Shown here: in pieces, positions 5,652 through 34,490 of the stretch
Layout: every line of letters begins with the position of its first letter
Position numbering within the stretch: the stretch's first letter is position 1
IMG/VR virus record: IMGVR_UViG_3300042013_000045
Coordinates: 108,838 to 172,837 of that record
Reading direction: 5' to 3' (one strand)
Length of the DNA: 64,000 bases
Origin: a virus
Translations under genes and position numbers: made by a program
Notes under the pieces: generated by a model
What the model was told of the DNA's origin: nothing
Databases searched by the model: none
Seen by the model: the letters and a program-made list of their open reading frames with translations, nothing else

Positions 5652-5945
5652 TTAATTAGTACGGATGGTTGTAGCTTTCGCAATGAGGCCCGAACACACC
5701 ACGCCAGAGATCTGGTACCCATCACGGTTCTTGCCCGTGAACCCCTGACTGATCGAATCGCTACCACACGCCCACGGCTTGTAACCGGTTAAAGTCACCT
5801 CCGTGTAACCTGCCTCTTTCAAGACACGCTTGGTGTTAGGTGGTGATTTGACATTCTCGTGCATGATGGATAAAGCACCACCGCCGAGTATCACCAGATA
5901 AATCAACCACATATACGGGGATGATGAACGAGTCTTTCTGTACAT
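5652..5945 (-). CDS. Conserved phage membrane-anchored protein
   Basis: N-terminal TM; GYTEVTLTGY..AC...GF....G.VCSG...K..TIR pattern. Confidence 0.7.
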   Translation of the reverse strand: MYRKTRSSSPYMWLIYLVILGGGALSIMHENVKSPPNTKRVLKEAGYTEVTLTGYKPWACGSDSISQGFTGKNRDGYQISGVVCSGLIAKATTIRTN

Positions 5946-5998: not shown

Positions 5999-7930
5999 TT
6001 AAGAAGCTGACACAGTACCAGTGACGACTTGGGTTTTCAGAGGGACTTCTGCGCCTGCCGGATCTTCAACCAGATCTTCTTCGTCAACCTTCACGTAACG
6101 ATCGACGATACGCGGGAACTTCGACACCTCAGGCTGCACAAGGTAGCCGTGCAAGGAGATGGCGTAGATCGCGAACTCACGACCCATCAGCACCGCATGT
6201 TCACGGGTGTACTTGACGCGCAGTTCGATGGTAGCCAACTGACCGTTACGCTGGGCGTGTGGGTCGAATGCACCGATCGGGAAGCCCACTGCTTGCTGAC
6301 CATCGCAACGCGGGATCGCCGTAGCAGCCGAGTAGTCTTCCAGTGCACGACGGTGATCGTACAGCTCGTTGAGCAGGCAGCTGGCGAACAGCGTAGGACG
6401 TGGCGCGCCCGGAGCTACCAGATCATCCAACAGGAAGATGACCGATGGCGACGAGTTCGACTTGTCCAGACCGATGGTTTCAGGCGTGGTTACCGCCGGA
6501 ATGTTGATGACCAGGTCGTTACCCTGACGCTCGGTTTTGTCGGTCACCATCGTGGTCACAGAGAACACGGACTCGTACGAGAACATGATGTGCGGGCACG
6601 GGCTCTCGATGGTGTCCCAAGTAAAGATCTTCTTCGCTTCCGGGTTAGCCATGCTGTTCCAGAACGCTGGACGCATCCGGGTGTTGACCGGGATGATCAG
6701 CGCCATGCTTTCGACATGTGGCATGACTTCGTTGAAGAAGTAACCGACGTCAGTGGTACCCGGTACGCGCAGTGGGCCGTTCGGGGTATCTTTGCCGTCT
6801 ACCTTGGCCTTGACTTTCGCGAAGTCAGCAAAGGAAGCCTGAGTGGTCGCGTCAGCCGGTTTAACGACTTCGGTGTACTTGGACTTCGACTCCCATACAA
6901 CCGGCAAAGCCGCTTCAGGGGTTTCCACTTGTTCCAGAGACGCCATGTAGCCGTTCTCTTCGAGGAACATGAGGGTGCCACCGATCTGCTTGGTCGAAGC
7001 AGGGGCCGAGGTGCGGCGATGCTTCAGACCGCTGGACTGAGTCTTCCAGAAGCCTTGTACCGCTTCGACGTTGGTCTTCGAATTGCCAGCCTTCTCCAGC
7101 TCGACTACCTTGGCGATGGTTTTACCCAGCAGGCTGTTCTTCAAAGTCAGCAGGTTCTGATCCGCCAGCGCGTAACGCCACACCATGTTGACAATCGCGG
7201 TTTCACGAGCGTACGGGTTGCCCAGTACTTCGTAAGACGGCGAAGCCTTCAGGGTTGCGATGGTAGCCAGGAAACCTTTGGTCAGGTGCAGGTTTTCTTC
7301 AGACGACGCTACGTGTTTCAGGACGCCCGATTGGAACCACTGCTCCATGATCGCTACAGCCGCAAACGGGGTGTTAACCGCGAAACGGATCAGGGCTTCG
7401 ACCTGAGCGTGCAGCTTGCCCGGATCAGGCATGTTCAGCTTCTTCAGCGTCAGCGGGCTGTGAGGAGTCATCAACGACGACTCAACATAGAAGTGACGGA
7501 ACTCTTTGCCGCCGTTGTTGGTCTGCTCGGTGTAATGAGCGTACGACGAGTTCATGTTGAAGACCGAGCTCACACGCGCTTCTTCGACGAAGCGTTTCAT
7601 GTCAGCCACGACCTTCTTCATTACTGGGTCAGACACAACGTCCGGGTTCCAGTAAACAGAATGCGAACCCATGTTGTCCAAGAACACCACCGAACCCATG
7701 CGAGCAAAGAAGCGAGCGCAGTGAGAGCAGTTCAGTTGCTTGCGCAGCTGGACAGCGTACTCTTCACCCTGTACTTCCAGCGCGTGCGACGAGATCAGGA
7801 ACAGGAACTTGGCAGCCAGAGTCTTGCGAATCTGGGTATTGAAGAAGACACCGTGAGGCTTGGACAGCAGCTCGTTGGAGGCAGCCTGCAATTCGTCCAG
7901 AGTCTTGTGGTAGTCGTAAACGTATTCCAT
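5999..7930 (-). CDS. Conserved jumbo-phage hypothetical protein (CxxC)
   Basis: 643 aa, AAGGAG RBS, LNCSHCARFF motif. Confidence 0.85.
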   Translation of the reverse strand: MEYVYDYHKTLDELQAASNELLSKPHGVFFNTQIRKTLAAKFLFLISSHALEVQGEEYAVQLRKQLNCSHCARFFARMGSVVFLDNMGSHSVYWNPDVVSDPVMKKVVADMKRFVEEARVSSVFNMNSSYAHYTEQTNNGGKEFRHFYVESSLMTPHSPLTLKKLNMPDPGKLHAQVEALIRFAVNTPFAAVAIMEQWFQSGVLKHVASSEENLHLTKGFLATIATLKASPSYEVLGNPYARETAIVNMVWRYALADQNLLTLKNSLLGKTIAKVVELEKAGNSKTNVEAVQGFWKTQSSGLKHRRTSAPASTKQIGGTLMFLEENGYMASLEQVETPEAALPVVWESKSKYTEVVKPADATTQASFADFAKVKAKVDGKDTPNGPLRVPGTTDVGYFFNEVMPHVESMALIIPVNTRMRPAFWNSMANPEAKKIFTWDTIESPCPHIMFSYESVFSVTTMVTDKTERQGNDLVINIPAVTTPETIGLDKSNSSPSVIFLLDDLVAPGAPRPTLFASCLLNELYDHRRALEDYSAATAIPRCDGQQAVGFPIGAFDPHAQRNGQLATIELRVKYTREHAVLMGREFAIYAISLHGYLVQPEVSKFPRIVDRYVKVDEEDLVEDPAGAEVPLKTQVVTGTVSAS

Positions 7931-28934: not shown

Positions 28935-29591
28935 CTACAGCGCCTTGAAGAACTTGATGTCGCGAATCCACCCGTTGAAGAAGTTAGGTGCCGCACCGTT
29001 GATGATTTCGATGATGTCACAGCTTACATCACTGGCGCTAACCCGGCTACCTCTTAGAACATCGTTGACGTAAAACCGAGTCGTGTTATCGACAGCGGAG
29101 TGGGTGACAGCGAACTTACGCCAGGTATTCGTCGGCATCGTGACCGTATCGGCAAACATGGGTGCTGTTTCTACTTTCCACTGGTCACCGGTCATGATGA
29201 TCTTGTTGTTAGTCTGGGCGTGCTTCCAGAAGAAGAAGTTGTAGGCCGCCGAGAGAGGAGCTCTGCGCAACACGAAGATCGTCTCATGTTTGAACACCAA
29301 TGGGTTGACCATTCGAATTTCAAACTCGAACCGCCAATTCGGGGTGTTCATTAAGCGCGGCTTGCCAGGGATCACGTTCCAGGTAATCCCTTGCCCAGCG
29401 TTGACCCGTAGAGCACCCCTGCCATCAATCTGTTCAAAGATCGGTACGCCACCGGCATACCCAAACACCGTGGGGGTGGAGTTCCCTTTAGCATCGGTGT
29501 AAGTGTTGTTGAGCGAGATGTCGATGATCTGTGGGTCATCGAATGGCTTGGGTTTATAGTTCCCAGCCACTTCAAGCAAACGAGCGATCAT
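28935..29591 (-). CDS. LamG-like domain virion protein
   Basis: MIARLLEVAG N-peptide; WRKFAVT...TRFYVND...FNGWIRDIKF. Confidence 0.75.
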   Translation of the reverse strand: MIARLLEVAGNYKPKPFDDPQIIDISLNNTYTDAKGNSTPTVFGYAGGVPIFEQIDGRGALRVNAGQGITWNVIPGKPRLMNTPNWRFEFEIRMVNPLVFKHETIFVLRRAPLSAAYNFFFWKHAQTNNKIIMTGDQWKVETAPMFADTVTMPTNTWRKFAVTHSAVDNTTRFYVNDVLRGSRVSASDVSCDIIEIINGAAPNFFNGWIRDIKFFKAL

Positions 29592-30250
29592 AGGACTAAC
29601 TCCAGAACAGGTCTCCACGCAGACCATGGATAAGTGTTGTTCGCGCCCATGTCGAGATAAGTGCTTGCCGAGATACTGGCACGACCACGTGTCTCGTTGA
29701 TGGTACCGAATCCGCCGTTGATAGCATACTCCTGGGTCTGCCAGAAGTCACCGGTGACATATGTAGAGTACGGAACAATCTTGCAGAGCTCAGCGTGAGG
29801 GATGTTGTCCCACTTCTGCAACCCACCAGGTCCTTCAGTACACACACGGTACATTAACTGGCTCCACTCACTACCATCCAGACCCGCTTGGTTCTGAGTA
29901 GCGCCACCTTTCATCAGACGGACCTTGTAGGTCTTCCCTTGAATGACGATGGTTTTACTACCGTTTACCACGTTGCGTCCTTGCAGATACAAGTGAGTCA
30001 GGTTCTGACGGATACCTTGTTTAGCTACAAAGAGCGTCTTGCCCTTGTACGCAAACTTCATCCAACTGGTGTCAGGGTTAATGCTGCTACCCTGCACGAT
30101 GCCTAACTGGGTAATCAACTCAGCAGGGGTGATGAGTTTGGCCTGAGAGATCTGTCCGTAATATCCCAGTTGGAGGTCGCCGAACAAAAGCTTAGTGCCT
30201 TCTGGTGTGGGCTTAAAATGCCCAGCGACTTGTAGCAAACGACTATTCAT
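29588..30250 (-). CDS. Virion structural protein (paralogue of 24114..24731)
   Basis: MNSRLLQVAG, YKVRLMKGG, SEWSQLMYRV, WRPVLEL. Confidence 0.75.
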   Translation of the reverse strand: MNSRLLQVAGHFKPTPEGTKLLFGDLQLGYYGQISQAKLITPAELITQLGIVQGSSINPDTSWMKFAYKGKTLFVAKQGIRQNLTHLYLQGRNVVNGSKTIVIQGKTYKVRLMKGGATQNQAGLDGSEWSQLMYRVCTEGPGGLQKWDNIPHAELCKIVPYSTYVTGDFWQTQEYAINGGFGTINETRGRASISASTYLDMGANNTYPWSAWRPVLELVL

Positions 30251-30328
30251 ACTGGCGTACCGTTTTGGTGATGGACATACGATACGGCGGCATAAAAGCC
30301 CCTAGCGCTTGGCTAGGGGCGTGTTCTA

Positions 30329-30517
30329 TCAATTACCCTGACCAACCCACACACCGTCGTTGAAAGTGCGCTCAAGGTCAGCACGGTAGCGTTCACATTT
30401 AAGCCAACGTCCTTTGATCATGGGCCACGTACTGTCGCCACAAACCACTACCCAACTCCATGGATGCCAACTGCGCTTTTCTAATCGATGACGAGGAACA
30501 TACTCTTCAGGCATCAC
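30329..30517 (-). CDS. Hypothetical protein
   Basis: 62 aa, AGGAG RBS, flanked by terminators. Confidence 0.6.
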   Translation of the reverse strand: MMPEEYVPRHRLEKRSWHPWSWVVVCGDSTWPMIKGRWLKCERYRADLERTFNDGVWVGQGN

Positions 30518-30527
30518 ACTCTCCTAG

Positions 30528-30562
30528 GCGGTATAAGAGCCTGTCCTTCGGGACAGGCTCTC
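30528..30562 (-). terminator. Terminator closing the tRNA/ncRNA operon
   Basis: gagcctgtcc-ttcg-ggacaggctc. Confidence 0.8.
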
Positions 30563-30569
30563 AGGATTT

Positions 30570-30964
30570 ACTGGTGACTCGGTCAACGGTTGGAATTCCG
30601 CCTCCTATGCAACTTAGACTTCAAGACCCGCCCACCATTGGATTCAGGTTACCGACAGCTACCAGTTCCACCTAGTTACCATGAGTACCCTACTTGAAGA
30701 ATGCAACTTCCCCTGTGTTAAGTCTGTTTTATTCCATGAGGAATGACCAGACGGTCACCATGGAGCGCCCAAGAGACTGGAGTTCGGGTTCTACCAGTAC
30801 GTCATGTCAGCCTAGTTCAAAGCCCTTGATCGGCTCTTCTGCTGCATGTGTCCTCGCTTGTATTCCTGATCAGAGGAGTACTCGCTCAGAATAGACTATA
30901 GGGCGACTTCGACTTAACTTCGTTGCTGCGACAAAGACGAGGAGCCTTGCGACTCCTTATCAGT
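30570..30964 (-). ncRNA. Unknown ~395-nt structured RNA
   Basis: No credible ORF; GGAGTC-GCAA-GGCTCC GNRA hairpin, long-range GTTAAGTC/GACTTAAC and CTTCAAG/CTTGAAG helices, TCCATG/CATGGA. Confidence 0.6.
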
Positions 30965-30967
30965 GTT

Positions 30968-31044
30968 TGGCTCCATGACCAGGATTCGAACCTGGGACAA
31001 ACGCGTTAACAGCGCGCTACTCTACCGGACTGAGTTATCATGGA
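30968..31044 (-). tRNA. tRNA-Asn(GTT)
   Basis: Full cloverleaf; GCGCG-CT GTT AA-CGCGT; TTCGAAT; CCA. Confidence 0.95.
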
Positions 31045-31055
31045 ATTGAATGGTG

Positions 31056-31292
31056 TTACGCTGCGACTGGTGTGTACCAAGGCAGCGTATGGTCAAGCAT
31101 CATGGGAATGTAAGCGCGTTCACGATTGGTACGTTCAGACCAGTAGTTACCATCCCGGCAACGTTCCATCGAGATCGAGTACACTTTACCATCCTCAAAC
31201 TTGAACCACGAAGGGCCGAAGCCGTCCGTTCCATCGGTGTAGTGTGTTGCTCCAACAGGAGCCTTGATGCACTGGTACTCTGCTGGCAACAT
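31056..31292 (-). CDS. Hypothetical protein within RNA cluster
   Basis: 78 aa, APVGATHY motif. Confidence 0.6.
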   Translation of the reverse strand: MLPAEYQCIKAPVGATHYTDGTDGFGPSWFKFEDGKVYSISMERCRDGNYWSERTNRERAYIPMMLDHTLPWYTPVAA

Positions 31293-31317
31293 GGTGCTTT
31301 ACCGATGGTTGTTGAAA

Positions 31318-31620
31318 TGGTGCCCACTGCCGGGATTTACCCAGGACCAACATGCTCCGCTCCACTAGACCTGCACACAATGGCTGTCAAGGGTGGCGCT
31401 GTCGTTTTCAACGGACATGGAAAGCCGTCCAGCAATACGACCGGCATTAACCCTAAGGCATGGCACAGTCGTACTCCCGGACATTCGGGTGCTCGACCAC
31501 TACGCTCCAGTCATGTCGTCCCCGTCGGGGATCTGTCACGTCGTAGCAGCCGAACATTAAAAGGCTCTCTACCAGCCAAGCACCTTTACTTGCTACGAGA
31601 GCAAGGAGGGATACGAGCAC
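31318..31620 (-). ncRNA. Unknown ~300-nt structured RNA ending in ACCA
   Basis: Ends pair (GTGCTCGT/GTGGGCAC); 15-bp helix 31542-31556/31490-31504 with G-U pairs on minus strand; T-arm-like hairpin before ACCA. Confidence 0.65.
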
Positions 31621-31729
31621 TAGCAGAGTAGCAGTAGAAGAAATGTGCATCCGTCTTACTATCGGAAGCTCAGAGGTCTGTTTCCAGACACGAGAGCCCG
31701 CGCCAGCAGCTTTCACTGCCACTCCCCAC
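31621..31729 (-). ncRNA. Unknown ~110-nt structured RNA
   Basis: 11-bp closing helix GGAGTGGCAGT/ACTGCTACTCT; GTCTG-GAAA-CAGAC hairpin. Confidence 0.55.
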
Positions 31730-31731
31730 AA

Positions 31732-31920
31732 TTGAATGTATCCCCTAGGTCACGTTCTTTCTGAGGCAGAACTCGAATCTGCAATGAGTCACGCTCTGAT
31801 GCCCGAAGGCCGCACGCTCCTCTCACCAACGGACAGGCAGCCACAATGGACTAAGGTTTCCACTTTAAGAGGCTTCAACCAAGGGTATACCAGTTCCCCC
31901 ACTCGTAGGGACACATTCAA
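31732..31920 (-). ncRNA. tRNA-like RNA with extended terminal stem and branched anticodon-replacing domain
   Basis: 13-15-bp terminal stem; D-arm GGG-GAACTGGTATA-CCC; T-arm GCAGA-TTCGAGT-TCTGC; no CCA. Confidence 0.7.
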
Positions 31921-31928
31921 AATGAAGC

Positions 31929-32114
31929 TTATCGTTCGTAAACGATGGTGAAGCTCGAGCGACCAGCGGTCACGATACGGCCAACGAGTTCTTCGTCAGT
32001 GTAGGACTGTTTGGGACTGGAGGCTGAGACAGGGTCAAAGCCGAGATGCTTGAAGTCAGCGCCATTCAGGACTTTGCCAGTATCAGCAACACGCTTAACA
32101 GCTTCAACGTTCAT
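31929..32114 (-). CDS. Hypothetical protein within RNA cluster
   Basis: 61 aa, AAGGAG RBS. Confidence 0.65.
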   Translation of the reverse strand: MNVEAVKRVADTGKVLNGADFKHLGFDPVSASSPKQSYTDEELVGRIVTAGRSSFTIVYER

Positions 32115-32132
32115 CGGAGACTCCTTAGGAAA

Positions 32133-32244
32133 TGGTAGTGCCGCCTGGAGTCGAACCAGGGACTTCTTTCTGATGGTGAGCGGCTAGCTCCACTCGAGGT
32201 GGAGCCGCTCGGGGAAAGGTCTCTACCAACTGAGATACGGCACT
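32133..32244 (-). ncRNA. tRNA-like RNA with a 36-nt hairpin insertion in the anticodon loop
   Basis: Perfect acceptor AGTGCCG/CGGCACT-A-CCA, D-arm, T-arm, stem CTTTC/GAAAG enclosing 43 nt instead of 7. Confidence 0.85.
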
Positions 32245-32265
32245 GATCAAGCATGTTGCAGGAAA

Positions 32266-32343
32266 TGGAAGGGGTGACTGGATTCGAACCAGTGATCGCG
32301 GGATCAAAACCCGCTGCCTTGGGCCGGACTAGGCGACACCCCA
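32266..32343 (-). tRNA. tRNA-Gln(TTG)
   Basis: GCGGG-TT TTG AT-CCCGC; TTCGAAT; CCA. Confidence 0.93.
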
Positions 32344-32351
32344 ATTAAAGC

Positions 32352-32500
32352 GTTAGAAGAAGCGGACGAGCGAGATTCAAACTCGCGGATGGATAACTAT
32401 AGCCCCATGGCAGGCAGCCTCCACTCTAGCTCATGTATCGATCGGCGCTACCCGATATATCAACGTTCAACCACTCCGTCACCGAACGCTTCTTCTGAAC
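32352..32500 (-). ncRNA. tRNA-like RNA with extended terminal stem and branched middle domain
   Basis: AGAAGAAGCG/CGCTTCTTCT stem; D-arm ACG-GAGTGGTTGAA-CGT; T-arm GCGAG-TTTGAAT-CTCGC; no CCA. Confidence 0.7.
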
Positions 32501-32501
32501 A

Positions 32502-32589
32502 AGGCCCCGAGGGATGGATTCGAACCATCGACCTGCACCTGGAGGAATTACCTCGCAGACATCGCTCTAACCAACTGAGCTACCCAGGG
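32502..32589 (-). ncRNA. tRNA-like RNA with elongated anticodon arm (no standard anticodon)
   Basis: TAGCTCAGTTGGTTAGAGC D-arm, GATGG-TTCGAAT-CCATC T-arm; 28-nt arm capped by GAGG-TAATT-CCTC; ends GCCT. Confidence 0.75.
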
Positions 32590-32794
32590 GATCACGCTGT
32601 GAAAACGTACGCAAGAAGATGCTCTCAGCTATCGTCCAGATCGTCCCAGTGGGAGCGTCCTTAGTAGGTGTGAGGTTAGTGTACACGACCATCGGCCATG
32701 AACAGTCCTGAGCATGTCTTGCGATATGAAGCACCTTGAACTCAAGACCACTAGGAGACTTGTAGGTCTCATGTTGCTCAATGGTCTCAAGCAT
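32567..32794 (-). CDS. DUF1653-like small protein
   Basis: YKS..G..FKVLHIARH......VVY......IW......F pattern; AGGA RBS; 3' end overlaps the tRNA-like gene. Confidence 0.6.
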   Translation of the reverse strand: MLETIEQHETYKSPSGLEFKVLHIARHAQDCSWPMVVYTNLTPTKDAPTGTIWTIAESIFLRTFSQRDPLGSSVG

Positions 32795-32808
32795 GATGCT
32801 TTCCTAAT

Positions 32809-32896
32809 TGGTGGAGAGAGAAGGATTCGAACCTTCGAAGTGCGGTCGCACATCAGATTTACAGTCTGGTCCCTTTGGCCACTCGGGAACCTCTCC
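32809..32896 (-). tRNA. tRNA-Tyr(GTA)
   Basis: CCAGA-CT GTA AA-TCTGA; long variable arm; ACCA. Confidence 0.95.
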
Positions 32897-32903
32897 GGGA
32901 AAT

Positions 32904-33010
32904 TGGTGGTCAGTACCGGGCTCTTAACCGGCTGCTTCATCTTTCGATTAAACTGCCCCGACTCGTAAGCAGCGAAGGTTCTTCCAGTCAATGGGCGAAA
33001 CGCCCGATCG
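32904..33010 (-). ncRNA. Degenerate tRNA-like RNA ending in ACCA
   Basis: CCGG-TTAAGAGC-CCGG T-arm-like hairpin then ACTGACC-A-CCA; GGGCG-TTT-CGCCC hairpin at 5' end. Confidence 0.45.
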
Positions 33011-33018
33011 GCTGTAGG

Positions 33019-33095
33019 TGGCGGGCCAAGCAGGATTCGAACCTACGACATCTGGTTTTGGAGACCAGCGCTCTGCCAGACTGAGCTATAGACCC
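33019..33095 (-). tRNA. tRNA-Trp(CCA)
   Basis: CTGGT-CT CCA AA-ACCAG; TTCGAAT; GCCA. Confidence 0.95.
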
Positions 33096-33106
33096 TGAAG
33101 CAGTGA

Positions 33107-33781
33107 TCACTCGTGAGTGGTAGACAACTCACTAATGATGCACACCGAGCCGTCTTCATCAGAGGTTGAGTCTGTGTAGTCGACTTGGTTGTAGATGCCA
33201 CCATGGAACTGGAGGATCTGGTCTTTCCACGAACTGTCCAAACGAAGCGCAGGGCACGTAGACTTACGTCCTTGGCACAGCGCATTGACAGATACGGAAC
33301 CAGCCGCAGTTACATGAACACTGATCTTGAACGGAACACCCAAGGGTACGTTTTCCAGTATGGTACTGTTAACGATCGCAGGGTCAGCGAAACTGGCTCG
33401 GAAGCCAATGGTCAGCTTACCCTTGTTCCAGAACACTTTCAGCGGTGGTGTGTTAGCGTTTTTAACATGCACTTGAGCAACCACAACCTTGGAGGCTGAG
33501 TTGACCTTTACCAGTGTCATCTCTTGACGACTCCAGTGATGGAGAGCGCTAGACAATGGCCAGTACTCGACTTCCTTCCATTCTGTGCGAGTGCGATGAA
33601 CGCTCTTGCTCGATGCACCCTTAGTAGGAGCGGTGAATTGAACGGAACCGTCTTCAAGCTGAACAACGCAACTCGGGCAGTTAGCCAGTGCGTAGTCACC
33701 CATGACCTCCAATGCAACTGGATTGGTCAGCGAAACGGGAAGCGGAGTAGCTATTTTGTACTGCGAAATATCAACGAACAT
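33107..33781 (-). CDS. Polysaccharide lyase family 7 (alginate lyase)
   Basis: PL7 motifs RTEWKE, QVH, FHGGIYNQ; start reset to MFVDISQ because the longer ORF runs into tRNA-Asp. Confidence 0.85.
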   Translation of the reverse strand: MFVDISQYKIATPLPVSLTNPVALEVMGDYALANCPSCVVQLEDGSVQFTAPTKGASSKSVHRTRTEWKEVEYWPLSSALHHWSRQEMTLVKVNSASKVVVAQVHVKNANTPPLKVFWNKGKLTIGFRASFADPAIVNSTILENVPLGVPFKISVHVTAAGSVSVNALCQGRKSTCPALRLDSSWKDQILQFHGGIYNQVDYTDSTSDEDGSVCIISELSTTHE

Positions 33782-33830
33782 GTTCAGTCTCTCAGCGTGG
33801 GTGCATAAGATGACGAACAGTTCTAGAATG

Positions 33831-33907
33831 TGGCGCCTCGTACCGGACTCGAACCGGTGACCCCTAGCGTGACAGGCTAGTACTCTAACCAACTGAGCTA
33901 ACGAAGC
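33831..33907 (-). tRNA. tRNA-Asp(GTC)
   Basis: CTAGC-CT GTC AC-GCTAG; TTCGAGT; GCCA. Confidence 0.95.
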
Positions 33908-33968
33908 GGATGTGAAGTTCCCGGCGTTTGGCTACGACGAAGTCGATCTGCATGCGGCGGGTTCTTCA

Positions 33969-33997
33969 CATAAGGTATTGATAAGCAGGAATTTTTT
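33969..33997 (-). promoter_or_regulatory. Promoter of the tRNA/ncRNA operon (AATTCC-N4-TATCAAT-N4-TATG)
   Basis: AAAAAATTCCTGCTTATCAATACCTTATG; followed by leader hairpin 33911-33970. Confidence 0.6.
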
Positions 33998-34490
33998 ACA
34001 CGATGAGTGCCCAAGTACCCGTTAAAGGCAGAGGAGTAGGGAAGTGCCAACGGATGTAACTGGTCCCCGCAGTAGCGTTCCATTCCCAGTTGATCATCTC
34101 GCCGATGACGCCATTAACAGAACAGTTCCCAAAATCGAGCCCTGTAATGTCCCCGGCGATTGCCATTTCGATCCACTGCACCGAAGGGGCGTCCAAGAAC
34201 ACGGTGTTCTCGGTGATGACGTACATCCCCTGAGATTGCTTGGTGGAGGTAGGGCTTGCTGAACCACCTGTGGCTTGTCCATGAAACCCCCAGATGTCCA
34301 GTCCCGGTGAAAGGTTACCATGACCGACTGTGATGGTACCGTTATAGATGTTGTTCTTGGGGGCGACTCCCACAGTCTGTTTCCAGATGCCGCCTACCTT
34401 TACAAAGACAGCCTTACTCAGCTTCCATGTACCGGCTACCTTGATTGCTGGCCAGACTCGTTTCCACAGACCACTCACATTAAGCTTCAT
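33996..34490 (-). CDS. Putative tail-tip adhesin
   Basis: N-terminal triple KVxGxWK repeats shared with 38525..39172; beta-rich C-domain. Confidence 0.65.
   Translation of the reverse strand: MKLNVSGLWKRVWPAIKVAGTWKLSKAVFVKVGGIWKQTVGVAPKNNIYNGTITVGHGNLSPGLDIWGFHGQATGGSASPTSTKQSQGMYVITENTVFLDAPSVQWIEMAIAGDITGLDFGNCSVNGVIGEMINWEWNATAGTSYIRWHFPTPLPLTGTWALIV

Follow-up and report, generated by a model that had tools for sequence, protein, structure and literature searches.

Phage T4 encodes, within its tRNA cluster, two stable non-tRNA species, RNA C and RNA D (also called species 1 and 2), which are co-processed with the T4 tRNAs. In tRNA-scaffold designs and in the tRNA-miRNA units of MHV68, a tRNA body provides for processing and stability, and a foreign hairpin is placed after the anticodon arm or in its stead. 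Such systems are either engineered or come from eukaryotic viruses, unlike the phage island described here, and we know of no natural bacterial-phage equivalent of such cargo that has been demonstrated experimentally. The function of T4 RNA C and RNA D remains unknown (PMC9697503). Lak megaphages carry oversize tRNAs with 'enigmatic introns' (Devoto et al., 10.1101/356790), and YrlA/bacterial Y RNAs, which also occur in phages, are stem-closed RNAs with a tRNA-like module bearing D- and T-arm features (PMC4201824). Phage tRNAs themselves counter tRNA-cleaving defences (PMC10264068, PMC11555353, PMC13056530).

We analysed a 64-kb window from the genome of a jumbo phage, an uncultured relative of Pseudomonas phage Psa21, in which a tRNA island occupies positions 33907-30528 of the minus strand; all features described below lie on that strand. 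The island comprises five canonical tRNAs, four protein genes and eight non-tRNA elements (E1-E8). The tRNAs for Asp (GTC, 33831-33907), Trp (CCA, 33019-33095), Tyr (GTA, class II, 32809-32896), Gln (TTG, 32266-32343) and Asn (GTT, 30968-31044) were called by ARAGORN and gave Rfam tRNA scores of 50-66 bits (66.2 bits for tRNA-Asp), which confirmed the five placements; E2 was an additional Rfam match with an odd anticodon region. All seven exact matches to the T-arm consensus in the window fell within the island, on the minus strand. The island resembles the T4 cluster in having non-tRNA elements, predicted to be RNAs, among its tRNA genes; compared by description rather than by sequence, it differs in that such elements, built on several unrelated plans, far outnumber its tRNAs.

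The original prediction of an RNA operon had overlooked the four ORFs; the unit is not RNA-only. The segment at 33107-33781 is not RNA but a 224-aa gene for a PL7 (polysaccharide lyase family 7)/alginate-lyase-like protein (Pfam PF08787, 4.8e-41), with a homologue annotated as PL7 in Psa21 and 79 related loci found. The conserved phage protein gene orf75 (32567-32794; phrog_9138, 1.8e-29), the last 22 nt of which run into E2, has homologues in Psa21, in L070 and in L003, the closest relative. The small orphan orf61 (31929-32114), which has a strong Shine-Dalgarno sequence, found no match in Pfam or PHROG; orf78 (31056-31292) had weak support (phrog_3483, 2e-4) and was counted with orf61 as one of two orphan genes. 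A 92-aa ORF starting with TTG and overlapping E6 matched no Pfam or PHROG family. A promoter motif had been proposed at 33969-33993, where a scan for the sigma-70-like consensus found none; the phage's own promoter may differ. At the proposed terminator, the 10-bp GC-rich terminal hairpin at 30562-30528 is real; in L003 it is kept through compensatory changes and has a stronger U tail. It is likely to be a terminator, with a weak U tail of its own, and was missed by a simple terminator scan. A second terminator-like hairpin (30957-30940) directly follows tRNA-Asn and forms the first hairpin of E8. Because of this second hairpin and the weak U tail of the first, a single transcription unit is unproven. 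Four copies of a CCA(A)UUUC trailer occur in the island, against approximately 0.45 expected by chance, placed exactly at the 3' ends of E1, tRNA-Gln, E4 and E7; the trailer is common to true tRNAs and mimics.

E5 (31732-31920), which scored 137.8 bits with the family model R1, is closed by a 14-bp terminal helix (P1) and contains a D-arm of tRNA-Leu type, variable hairpins, a long-range helix of 7 bp (P2) and a T-arm; it lacks CCA. E5 belongs to a widespread phage RNA family derived from tRNA-Leu, of at least 14 members, defined by a 13-bp terminal helix and the 7-bp long-range helix and apparently not previously described; E5 had no match in Rfam, the tRNA model also failing on it. In a MAFFT alignment of 12 members, pairing was retained in 93.6% of cells versus 70.6% in shuffles (0/500 reached this value) and 34-49% in slid controls, and 22 of the 31 pairs were changed on both sides. 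A 15-row model-fitted alignment, which takes in one weak match at 35 bits, gave a similar result. Members scored 92-151 bits with R1, versus approximately 22 bits for the true tRNA-Leu of Psa21. When compared with bacterial class II tRNA-Leu (RF00005), the family retains the D-arm sequence, the T-arm and three acceptor pairs, and one member, L141, also retains an AAG anticodon-like arm and the long variable arm. Unlike tRNA-Leu, however, the family has an acceptor cut down to those three invariant pairs, no CCA and no conserved anticodon arm, and has gained the terminal helix as well as the long-range helix, which joins the variable region to the 3' tail. RNase P would not obviously recognise E5, whose acceptor has only three pairs. 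Members are mostly located between two tRNAs, and in all five checked a tRNA lay within approximately 2-26 nt on at least one side.

E3 (32352-32500) is a stem-closed RNA with 10-bp and 5-bp terminal helices in which a T-arm is combined with a D motif of class-II-like form and with the E5-family motif GGCUGCCUG. It scored only 10 bits (E 0.05) with R1 and nhmmer found no homologue of it; its positional counterpart in L003 (6157-6283) likewise has a 10-bp closing stem, and E3 is probably a diverged paralogue of the E5 family. E3 and E5 share with YrlA a closed stem and D- and T-arm features; YrlA is, however, permuted (T, acceptor hairpin, D, its two ends emerging where the anticodon would be), whereas E3 and E5 keep the normal D to T order. 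With the YrlA model (RF02553) the best score was 16.7 bits against a threshold of 69, and a search for a Ro/TROVE gene found none.

E2 and E4 both retain a tRNA body that ends in CCA or CCU, with a variable hairpin as anticodon arm. E2 (32503-32589) has acceptor, D and T arms and the end G-CCU, with a non-canonical hairpin in place of the anticodon arm. It was the sixth Rfam tRNA match (38.5 bits) and the only non-tRNA element with any Rfam match, its anticodon region being 28 nt long where the model expects 17. Homologues of its body were found at L003:6077-6151, L004:1888-1988 and L103:2203-2359, so that in four phages the same body carries an anticodon region of approximately 17 (L003), 28 (E2), approximately 45 (L004) or approximately 100 nt (L103), with an anticodon-like loop absent at every insert length. 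Covarying pairs lie in the T and D stems and at 7-66. A conserved cargo of approximately 95 nt occurs in two different tRNA bodies. E4 (32133-32244) is a complete tRNA body (A1-U72, A73, encoded CCA) whose anticodon loop is interrupted by a 33-nt hairpin; it had no match in Rfam and was detected by ARAGORN only if introns were allowed. The comparison with its one homologue, the L003 orthologue (6897-6999), gave a pairwise consensus fold z-score of -6.2 (-3.55 for the single sequence) and seven pairs changed on both sides versus 2.4 +/- 1.4 in shuffles (0/100), with pairing surviving such changes in the acceptor, anticodon and T stems and at the base of the insert.

E1 (32904-33012) is a mini tRNA-like RNA ending in ACCA, with a core (32982-32904) near-invariant in five phages. 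It folds into two hairpins, the second T-arm-like with two covarying pairs in its stem, and its 3' tail, made up of 7 nt, A and CCA in that order and succeeded by the shared UUUC trailer, is able to pair with the 3' strand of hairpin 1; because the core is almost invariant, the fold is unproven. E8 (30565-30967) is a structured RNA of approximately 400 nt, compared with a single homologue, L003:7086-7492, and had no match in Rfam. Its consensus fold (z -4.27 versus column shuffles) was strand-specific, with -55.6 kcal/mol on the minus strand versus -26.2 kcal/mol for the reverse complement and 24 G-U cells, and so provides the best case for the earlier argument from minus-strand G-U pairs against random decay. 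Its 21 pairs changed on both sides were not significantly above shuffles (15.8 +/- 3.4; 9/100). Two further segments are candidates: E6 (31621-31729), stem-closed and hairpin-rich (MFE z -2.2), and E7 (31318-31620), of approximately 300 nt with ends able to pair (MFE z -1.4) and a 3' ACCA directly followed by the UUUC trailer. Neither had a homologue in any search made, and ARAGORN called no tmRNA in E7. Single-sequence folding z-scores were otherwise unremarkable, E4 and E6 being the exceptions.

Five of the eight elements (E1, E2, E4, E5 and E8) exist as the original prediction described and are conserved in other phages with structure-preserving changes, while E6 and E7 lack homologues and E3 reaches only 10 bits. 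Covariation was found among homologues of E2, E4 and E5 and in the T-like stem of E1, but not above shuffles in E8. The observation was largely real and is partly confirmed; its interpretation is partly supported. The proposed tRNA body as a handle for cargo fits the E2-body inserts and the shared cargo. The word 'undescribed' is too strong for the general phenomenon, which T4 RNA C/D and the Lak 'introns' exemplify.

These sequence comparisons support the view that several island elements are RNAs derived from tRNAs that do not decode yet are conserved, rather than products of decay, a claim for which E6, E7 and in part E3 bring no comparative support. Neutral decay, in which the odd elements would be spacer DNA and tRNA genes on their way to loss within an array of rapidly replaced cassettes, draws on the strongly different island gene content of relatives, the degenerate tRNA-like sequence at L003:5690-5795, the mostly unremarkable z-scores, the poor match of E3 to the E5-family model and the lack of homologues of E6 and E7. 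Yet flanking proteins share only 44-59% identity with those of L003, while E4 and E8 retain 80% and 71% nucleotide identity, and the conservation or covariation of E1, E2, E4, E5 and E8 persists at a divergence where neutral DNA would not align. Together with the strand-specific folding of E8, this makes decay highly improbable as a general account, and for E2, E4 and E5 covariation refutes it. That E2, E4 and similar oversize genes are intron-bearing tRNAs, decoding after post-transcriptional removal of the insert, is improbable as well. The perfect body, A73 and CCA of E4, the ACCAU segment conserved 3' of its insert in both phages, and the calls of such genes by ARAGORN in most related clusters when introns are allowed would suit this explanation, as would the Lak precedent (10.1101/356790), where huge-phage tRNA genes likewise carry anticodon-region inserts conserved between genomes. 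The E4 orthologues are, however, assigned different anticodons (Ser-CGA versus Cys-GCA), the sole conserved reading puts C at position 33 of the loop and a pyrimidine at 37, and E2 relatives have no anticodon-like loop. At 19-100 nt the inserts fall short of the size of a group I intron, there was no RF00028 match, and RtcB was not found in the phage record, which is 65% complete. Unlike in Lak, orthologues in the island lack a coherent anticodon, one body carries inserts of approximately 17-100 nt and one cargo occurs in two bodies; non-decoding scaffolds are therefore predicted in preference to spliced tRNAs.

A rival to be taken seriously, although we consider it unlikely, is that the elements punctuate the processing of the interleaved ORFs. 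As in the mitochondrial tRNA punctuation model, tRNA-like bodies would be kept solely as RNase P/3'-processing signals that free tRNAs and small mRNAs, which would explain constrained acceptor, T and D arms beside a drifting anticodon arm and the trailer shared by tRNAs and mimics. Every island ORF is bracketed by a tRNA or tRNA-like element (Asp/PL7/Trp, Tyr/orf75/E2, E4/orf61/E5 and E7/orf78/Asn), and L003 shows the same pattern (Asn/ORF/Met/PL7/Trp and degenerate tRNA-like element/orf75/E2). However, E1, E3 and E5 adjoin RNA on at least one side rather than ORFs alone; the E5 family combines its position between tRNAs with elaborate covarying helices and a 3-bp acceptor; and the 95-nt cargo and the E1 core imply a function beyond a cleavage signal. 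The retained CCA or CCU ends and discriminator bases could instead mean that E1, E2, E4 and perhaps E7 undergo charging or binding at their 3' ends, as non-ribosomal aminoacyl carriers supplying amino acids to a phage enzyme or as decoys that titrate nucleases directed at tRNA acceptor ends; tRNA tails are indeed cut by some defence nucleases (PMC12851939). No candidate partner enzyme adjoins these elements, however, and E3 and E5 have no CCA end, leaving both variants the least probable of the explanations considered.

We put the chances at about even that the island of this Psa21-like jumbo phage is a mosaic array of tRNA cassettes, in which non-decoding tRNA-derived RNAs are under selection and act as mimics. 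In the tRNA-derived elements the acceptor, D and T stems are constrained and the anticodon arm gives way to hairpins whose lengths differ widely. These RNAs and one large structured RNA alternate with true tRNAs and small ORFs in an array presumably transcribed from the minus strand. Host RNase P may cleave at the 5' sides of the tRNA bodies, with 3' processing at the common trailer, and the two cuts would yield every element as a separate stable RNA, either tRNA-shaped or closed by a stem. The released mimics would engage readers of the tRNA body (acceptor/T-arm, elbow) outside translation. An anticodon-nuclease decoy should keep a recognisable anticodon loop, which the island elements do not, and this argues against that particular role. 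Most likely, the mimics of this phage may inhibit tRNA-targeting host defences or act on them as decoys, or may form a chassis on which the inserted hairpins are stabilised and displayed.

The island occupies the minus strand at 33907-30528 of the window, which is the terminal 64-kb stretch of an IMG/VR virus record 172.8 kb in length and ~65% complete. Beyond tRNAs, the sole GenBank similarity was to the Pseudomonas jumbo phage Psa21, where a PL7 lyase gene likewise lies in a mosaic that combines tRNAs with HNH endonucleases and small ORFs. The closest relative found was the IMG/VR contig 3300042934_000519 (L003), in which the island is situated between the same flanking genes; the flanking proteins are only 44-59% identical between the two, and the PL7 protein is 83% identical. 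When the 591-aa protein beside the island served as anchor, only L003 was returned from IMG/VR, together with three distant metagenome contigs devoid of tRNA islands. Downstream of the island (28935-30250 of the window, minus strand; 7771-11069 of L003) are several paralogous genes of ~220-230 aa, whose copies are 29-59% identical to one another and across phages and look like a diversifying gene family.

For canonical tRNAs, the RF00005 score had to reach the gathering threshold of 29 bits. ARAGORN and Rfam both returned the five tRNAs of the original prediction (Asp, Trp, Tyr, Gln and Asn) as clean genes in the island, scoring 50-66 bits on RF00005, and a sixth match was obtained to the element E2 (38.5 bits), whose anticodon region is aberrant. 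These six were the only tRNA matches in the whole record, and the remaining non-tRNA elements of the island (E1 and E3 to E8) had no match to RF00005 even at E<=10. All seven exact occurrences of the T-arm consensus in the window were located within the island, on the minus strand. The island had been described as an operon of RNAs only, and in this respect four minus-strand ORFs had been missed: a PL7/alginate-lyase-like gene of 224 aa (33107-33781; Pfam 4.8e-41); orf75 (32794-32567; phrog_9138), conserved in L003, Psa21 and the related locus L070; orf61 (32114-31929), an orphan with a strong ribosome-binding site; and orf78 (31292-31056), with weak support. Searches with tblastx and nhmmer gave no homologue of orf61 or orf78. 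The eight structured elements originally proposed coincide exactly with the gaps between the tRNAs and the ORFs. The PL7/alginate-lyase-like gene is kept beside tRNAs in many jumbo-phage contigs (79 loci), an odd linkage.

The scan for promoters, which covered those of sigma-70 type, found none at 33969-33993, where a promoter motif had been placed. The hairpin at 30562-30528 that had been proposed as terminator is retained in L003 with compensatory changes, and has a proper U tail there. A second terminator-like hairpin (30957-30940), with an L003 counterpart carrying a good U tract, directly follows tRNA-Asn, and E8 may thus be a read-through product. A trailer, CCA(A)UUUC, was found directly after the 3' ends of E1, tRNA-Gln, E4 and E7 (32899-32906, 32262-32268, 32129-32135 and 31314-31320, minus strand), four occurrences in the island against ~0.45 expected. 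It was also present 3' of several L003 tRNAs and is a candidate 3'-processing signal.

E5 (31920-31732, minus strand) has a D-arm sequence of the bacterial tRNA-Leu type. A pattern scan of IMG/VR for this D-arm returned mostly ordinary tRNA-Leu genes, among which homologues of E5 also surfaced, and 12 members of the family, from jumbo-phage contigs and prophage-like contigs (one encoding NinG, another a VRR-NUC nuclease), were aligned with MAFFT. Shared by the members are the D-arm and a T-arm, a terminal helix P1 of 8-14 bp, and hairpins at the anticodon-like and variable-arm positions, which vary. They also share a GC(U/C)GCCUG segment, which is conserved, and P2, a helix of 7 bp between the post-variable region and the 3' tail. 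In this alignment 93.6% of cells were paired compared with 70.6% after shuffling, a level reached by none of 500 shuffles, and slid controls gave 34-49%. Two-sided changes were seen in 22 of the 31 pairs, including 12 of 13 in P1 and six of seven in P2. Three invariant acceptor pairs cross P2, and the fold would therefore be a pseudoknot if both were to form. One member, L141, still carries a long variable arm together with an anticodon-like arm (AAG), which shows descent from tRNA-Leu. A tRNA was found within ~2-26 nt, on one side or both, of each of the five members for which this was checked.

Membership of the family was judged with the covariance model R1, and rested on P1, a tRNA-Leu-type D-arm, a long-range P2 enclosing the T-arm and a score comparable to those of the members. 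Members scored 92-151 bits and E5 itself 137.8 bits over the full model length, as against ~22 bits for the real tRNA-Leu of Psa21. Strong matches (at least 92 bits) were obtained in 12 of the 31 phage records searched. In 151 genomes of one bacterial class, the R1 matches reached only 35-43 bits, far short of the members' scores, and spanned 105-121 nt, a length that suggests ordinary tRNA-Leu genes; a pattern scan of genome contigs, with at least 120 matches, gave no R1 match among the 80 loci listed. No match was found by blastn of two members against GenBank phages, or of the member L092 against E. coli genomes, and no Rfam family matches any member. The E5 family, derived from tRNA-Leu and absent from Rfam, has at least 14 members and shows strong covariation. 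Some of its members lie in small contigs that carry genes of temperate-phage type (L092:1863-2050, L115 and L164). That of L092 is downstream of NinG and that of L164 downstream of the VRR-NUC nuclease, each being downstream of an unassigned 225-aa ORF as well, and in the L092 copy the 3' end coincides in part with an Rfam isrJ match below threshold (34.5 bits against 37). E3 (32500-32352, minus strand) shares with the family the D motif, the GGCUGCCUG motif, the T-arm and the closing helices. As it scored only 10 bits on R1 and is devoid of the 3' strand of P2, it was kept out of the family, and is probably a diverged paralogue.

A canonical anticodon arm, taken as a 5-bp stem with a 7-nt loop, U33 and a purine at position 37, was found in neither E2 nor E4, and the corresponding arms are unconserved in the E5 family. 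In E4 (32244-32133, minus strand) the tRNA body is complete, with the pair A1-U72, A73 and a CCA that is encoded, and its 43-nt anticodon loop contains a 33-nt hairpin; the L003 orthologue of E4 carries a 23-nt hairpin at the same site. Between the two, pairing is kept through two-sided changes in the acceptor, anticodon and T stems and at the base of the hairpin, with a z of -6.2 for the pairwise consensus fold (column shuffles) and seven two-sided changed pairs compared with 2.4 +/- 1.4 after shuffling. The anticodons assigned to the orthologues by ARAGORN, with introns allowed, differ, and in the sole anticodon reading that is conserved, position 33 is C and position 37 a pyrimidine; E4 is therefore unlikely, from its sequence, to be a decoding tRNA. 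The body of E2 (32589-32503, minus strand) recurs in L003 and in the relative phage loci L004 and L103, with covariation in the T, D and 7-66 pairs. The anticodon region of E2 is 28 nt in length and folds into a hairpin with a 5-nt loop, compared with regions of ~17, 45 and 100 nt in its relatives, and a 7-nt anticodon loop is absent from all four versions. The ~95-nt cargo of L103 (2203-2359, minus strand) was found nearly unchanged at the anticodon position in L004 (2006-2163, plus strand), so that one cargo sits in two different tRNA bodies, that of L103 being the E2 body; an Rfam search with the cargo of L103 and L004 gave no match. Most related clusters carry oversize tRNA-like genes. One such gene, L006:6683-6857, apparently encloses a T-arm as well as another 5' half of a tRNA, similar to what has been reported in Lak phages as a 'tRNA inside a tRNA intron'.

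E1 (33012-32904, minus strand) has a core of ~80 nt that is almost invariant in five phages and was folded by RNAalifold into two hairpins, the T-like one with two covarying pairs. Its 3' tail (7 nt, A, CCA) can alternatively be modelled as pairing with the 3' strand of hairpin 1, which would give a 7-bp acceptor with one G-A mismatch beside the T-like arm, in a putative mini tRNA-like shape. E8 (30967-30565, minus strand) is 71% identical to its L003 counterpart, which aligns in conserved blocks, and its consensus fold had a z of -4.27 (column shuffles). Two parts of the fold, a long-range helix of 8 bp and the first hairpin, are wholly changed in sequence between the two phages with pairing kept; the total of two-sided changed pairs is not significant on its own, as 9 of 100 shuffles reach that count. 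The earlier argument from minus-strand folding held for E8, with strand-specific energies of -55.6 versus -26.2 kcal/mol. E7 (31620-31318, minus strand) ends in ACCA and is followed by the UUUC trailer that tRNA-Gln, E4 and E1 also have, and this trailer is the one feature to suggest that an RNA is made here whose 3' end is of tRNA type. For neither E7 nor E6 (31729-31621, minus strand) did nhmmer, tblastx, BLAST or pattern scan yield a homologue, and the hits of pattern scans for E8, E4 and E7 were confined to L003 or due to chance. The L003 island also contains a degenerate tRNA-like element and two more RNAs with 10-11-bp terminal closing stems (5690-5795, 6157-6283 and 7000-7090), at positions matching elements of the window; such stem-closed modules look like a recurring design and are possibly RNase III sites.

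Several known classes were tested and rejected. A group I intron, defined as an intron of at least 200 nt in the anticodon loop matching RF00028, does not account for the inserts, which measure 19-100 nt and gave no RF00028 match at E<=10. A Y RNA/YrlA reading of E3 and E5 was set aside, as the best RF02553 score was 16.7 bits, on a different element (threshold 69), and no Ro/TROVE gene (PF05731) was found in the ~65% complete record; moreover, YrlA has a permuted T-acceptor-D order, whereas in E3 and E5 the D-arm precedes the T-arm. For tmRNA, the features sought were a tag reading frame, a G3-U70 pair in an end resembling tRNA-Ala, and a call by ARAGORN or Rfam. Neither program detected one in E7 or E1, and the position 3-70 pair is G3-C70 in E7 and a G3-A70 mismatch in E1, in contrast to the G3-U70 of tmRNA. 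ROOL, GOLLD and other large Rfam RNAs gave no match at E<=10 over 30300-34200, which covers E8 and E7. RtcB and a CCA-adding enzyme were not found in the ~65% complete record.

Neutral decay of former tRNAs is excluded for E2, E4 and E5 and unlikely for E1 and E8. Intron-bearing tRNAs, for which Lak phages offer a precedent, also have an insert but fit poorly, since anticodons here are inconsistent between orthologues and insert sizes range widely. Each ORF of the island is bracketed by a tRNA or a tRNA-like element, and processing punctuation is therefore a real rival for E2, E4 and E7; it leaves unexplained, however, E1, E5, the swapping of cargo and the family-wide covariation. For these reasons we favour tRNA mimicry, in which RNAs released by the tRNA-processing machinery would act as mimics of tRNA, with a putative decoy or chassis role the likeliest. 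A wider proposal, which we put forward as speculation and consider rather improbable, is that jumbo phages and some temperate phages carry modular tRNA-chassis RNAs, among them the widespread pseudoknotted tRNA-Leu-derived family and the cargo-exchanging bodies, which would be excised by the tRNA-processing machinery of the host and serve in anti-defence, either as decoys for, or as inhibitors of, immune nucleases that cleave or sense tRNAs.

Phage tRNA genes are now seen as counter-measures to tRNA-cleaving immunity, and non-decoding tRNA look-alikes beside them have been known, with no assigned role, since T4 RNA C and RNA D, to which the present elements are likened by genomic setting alone. 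The island offers a compact test set with comparative support, in which a tRNA body tolerates very different inserts, one cargo is found in two bodies and a tRNA-Leu-derived family is represented. Its elements are open to direct tests of processing, charging, protein partners and anti-defence activity, and they would likewise provide Rfam with a new family and structural work with a target.
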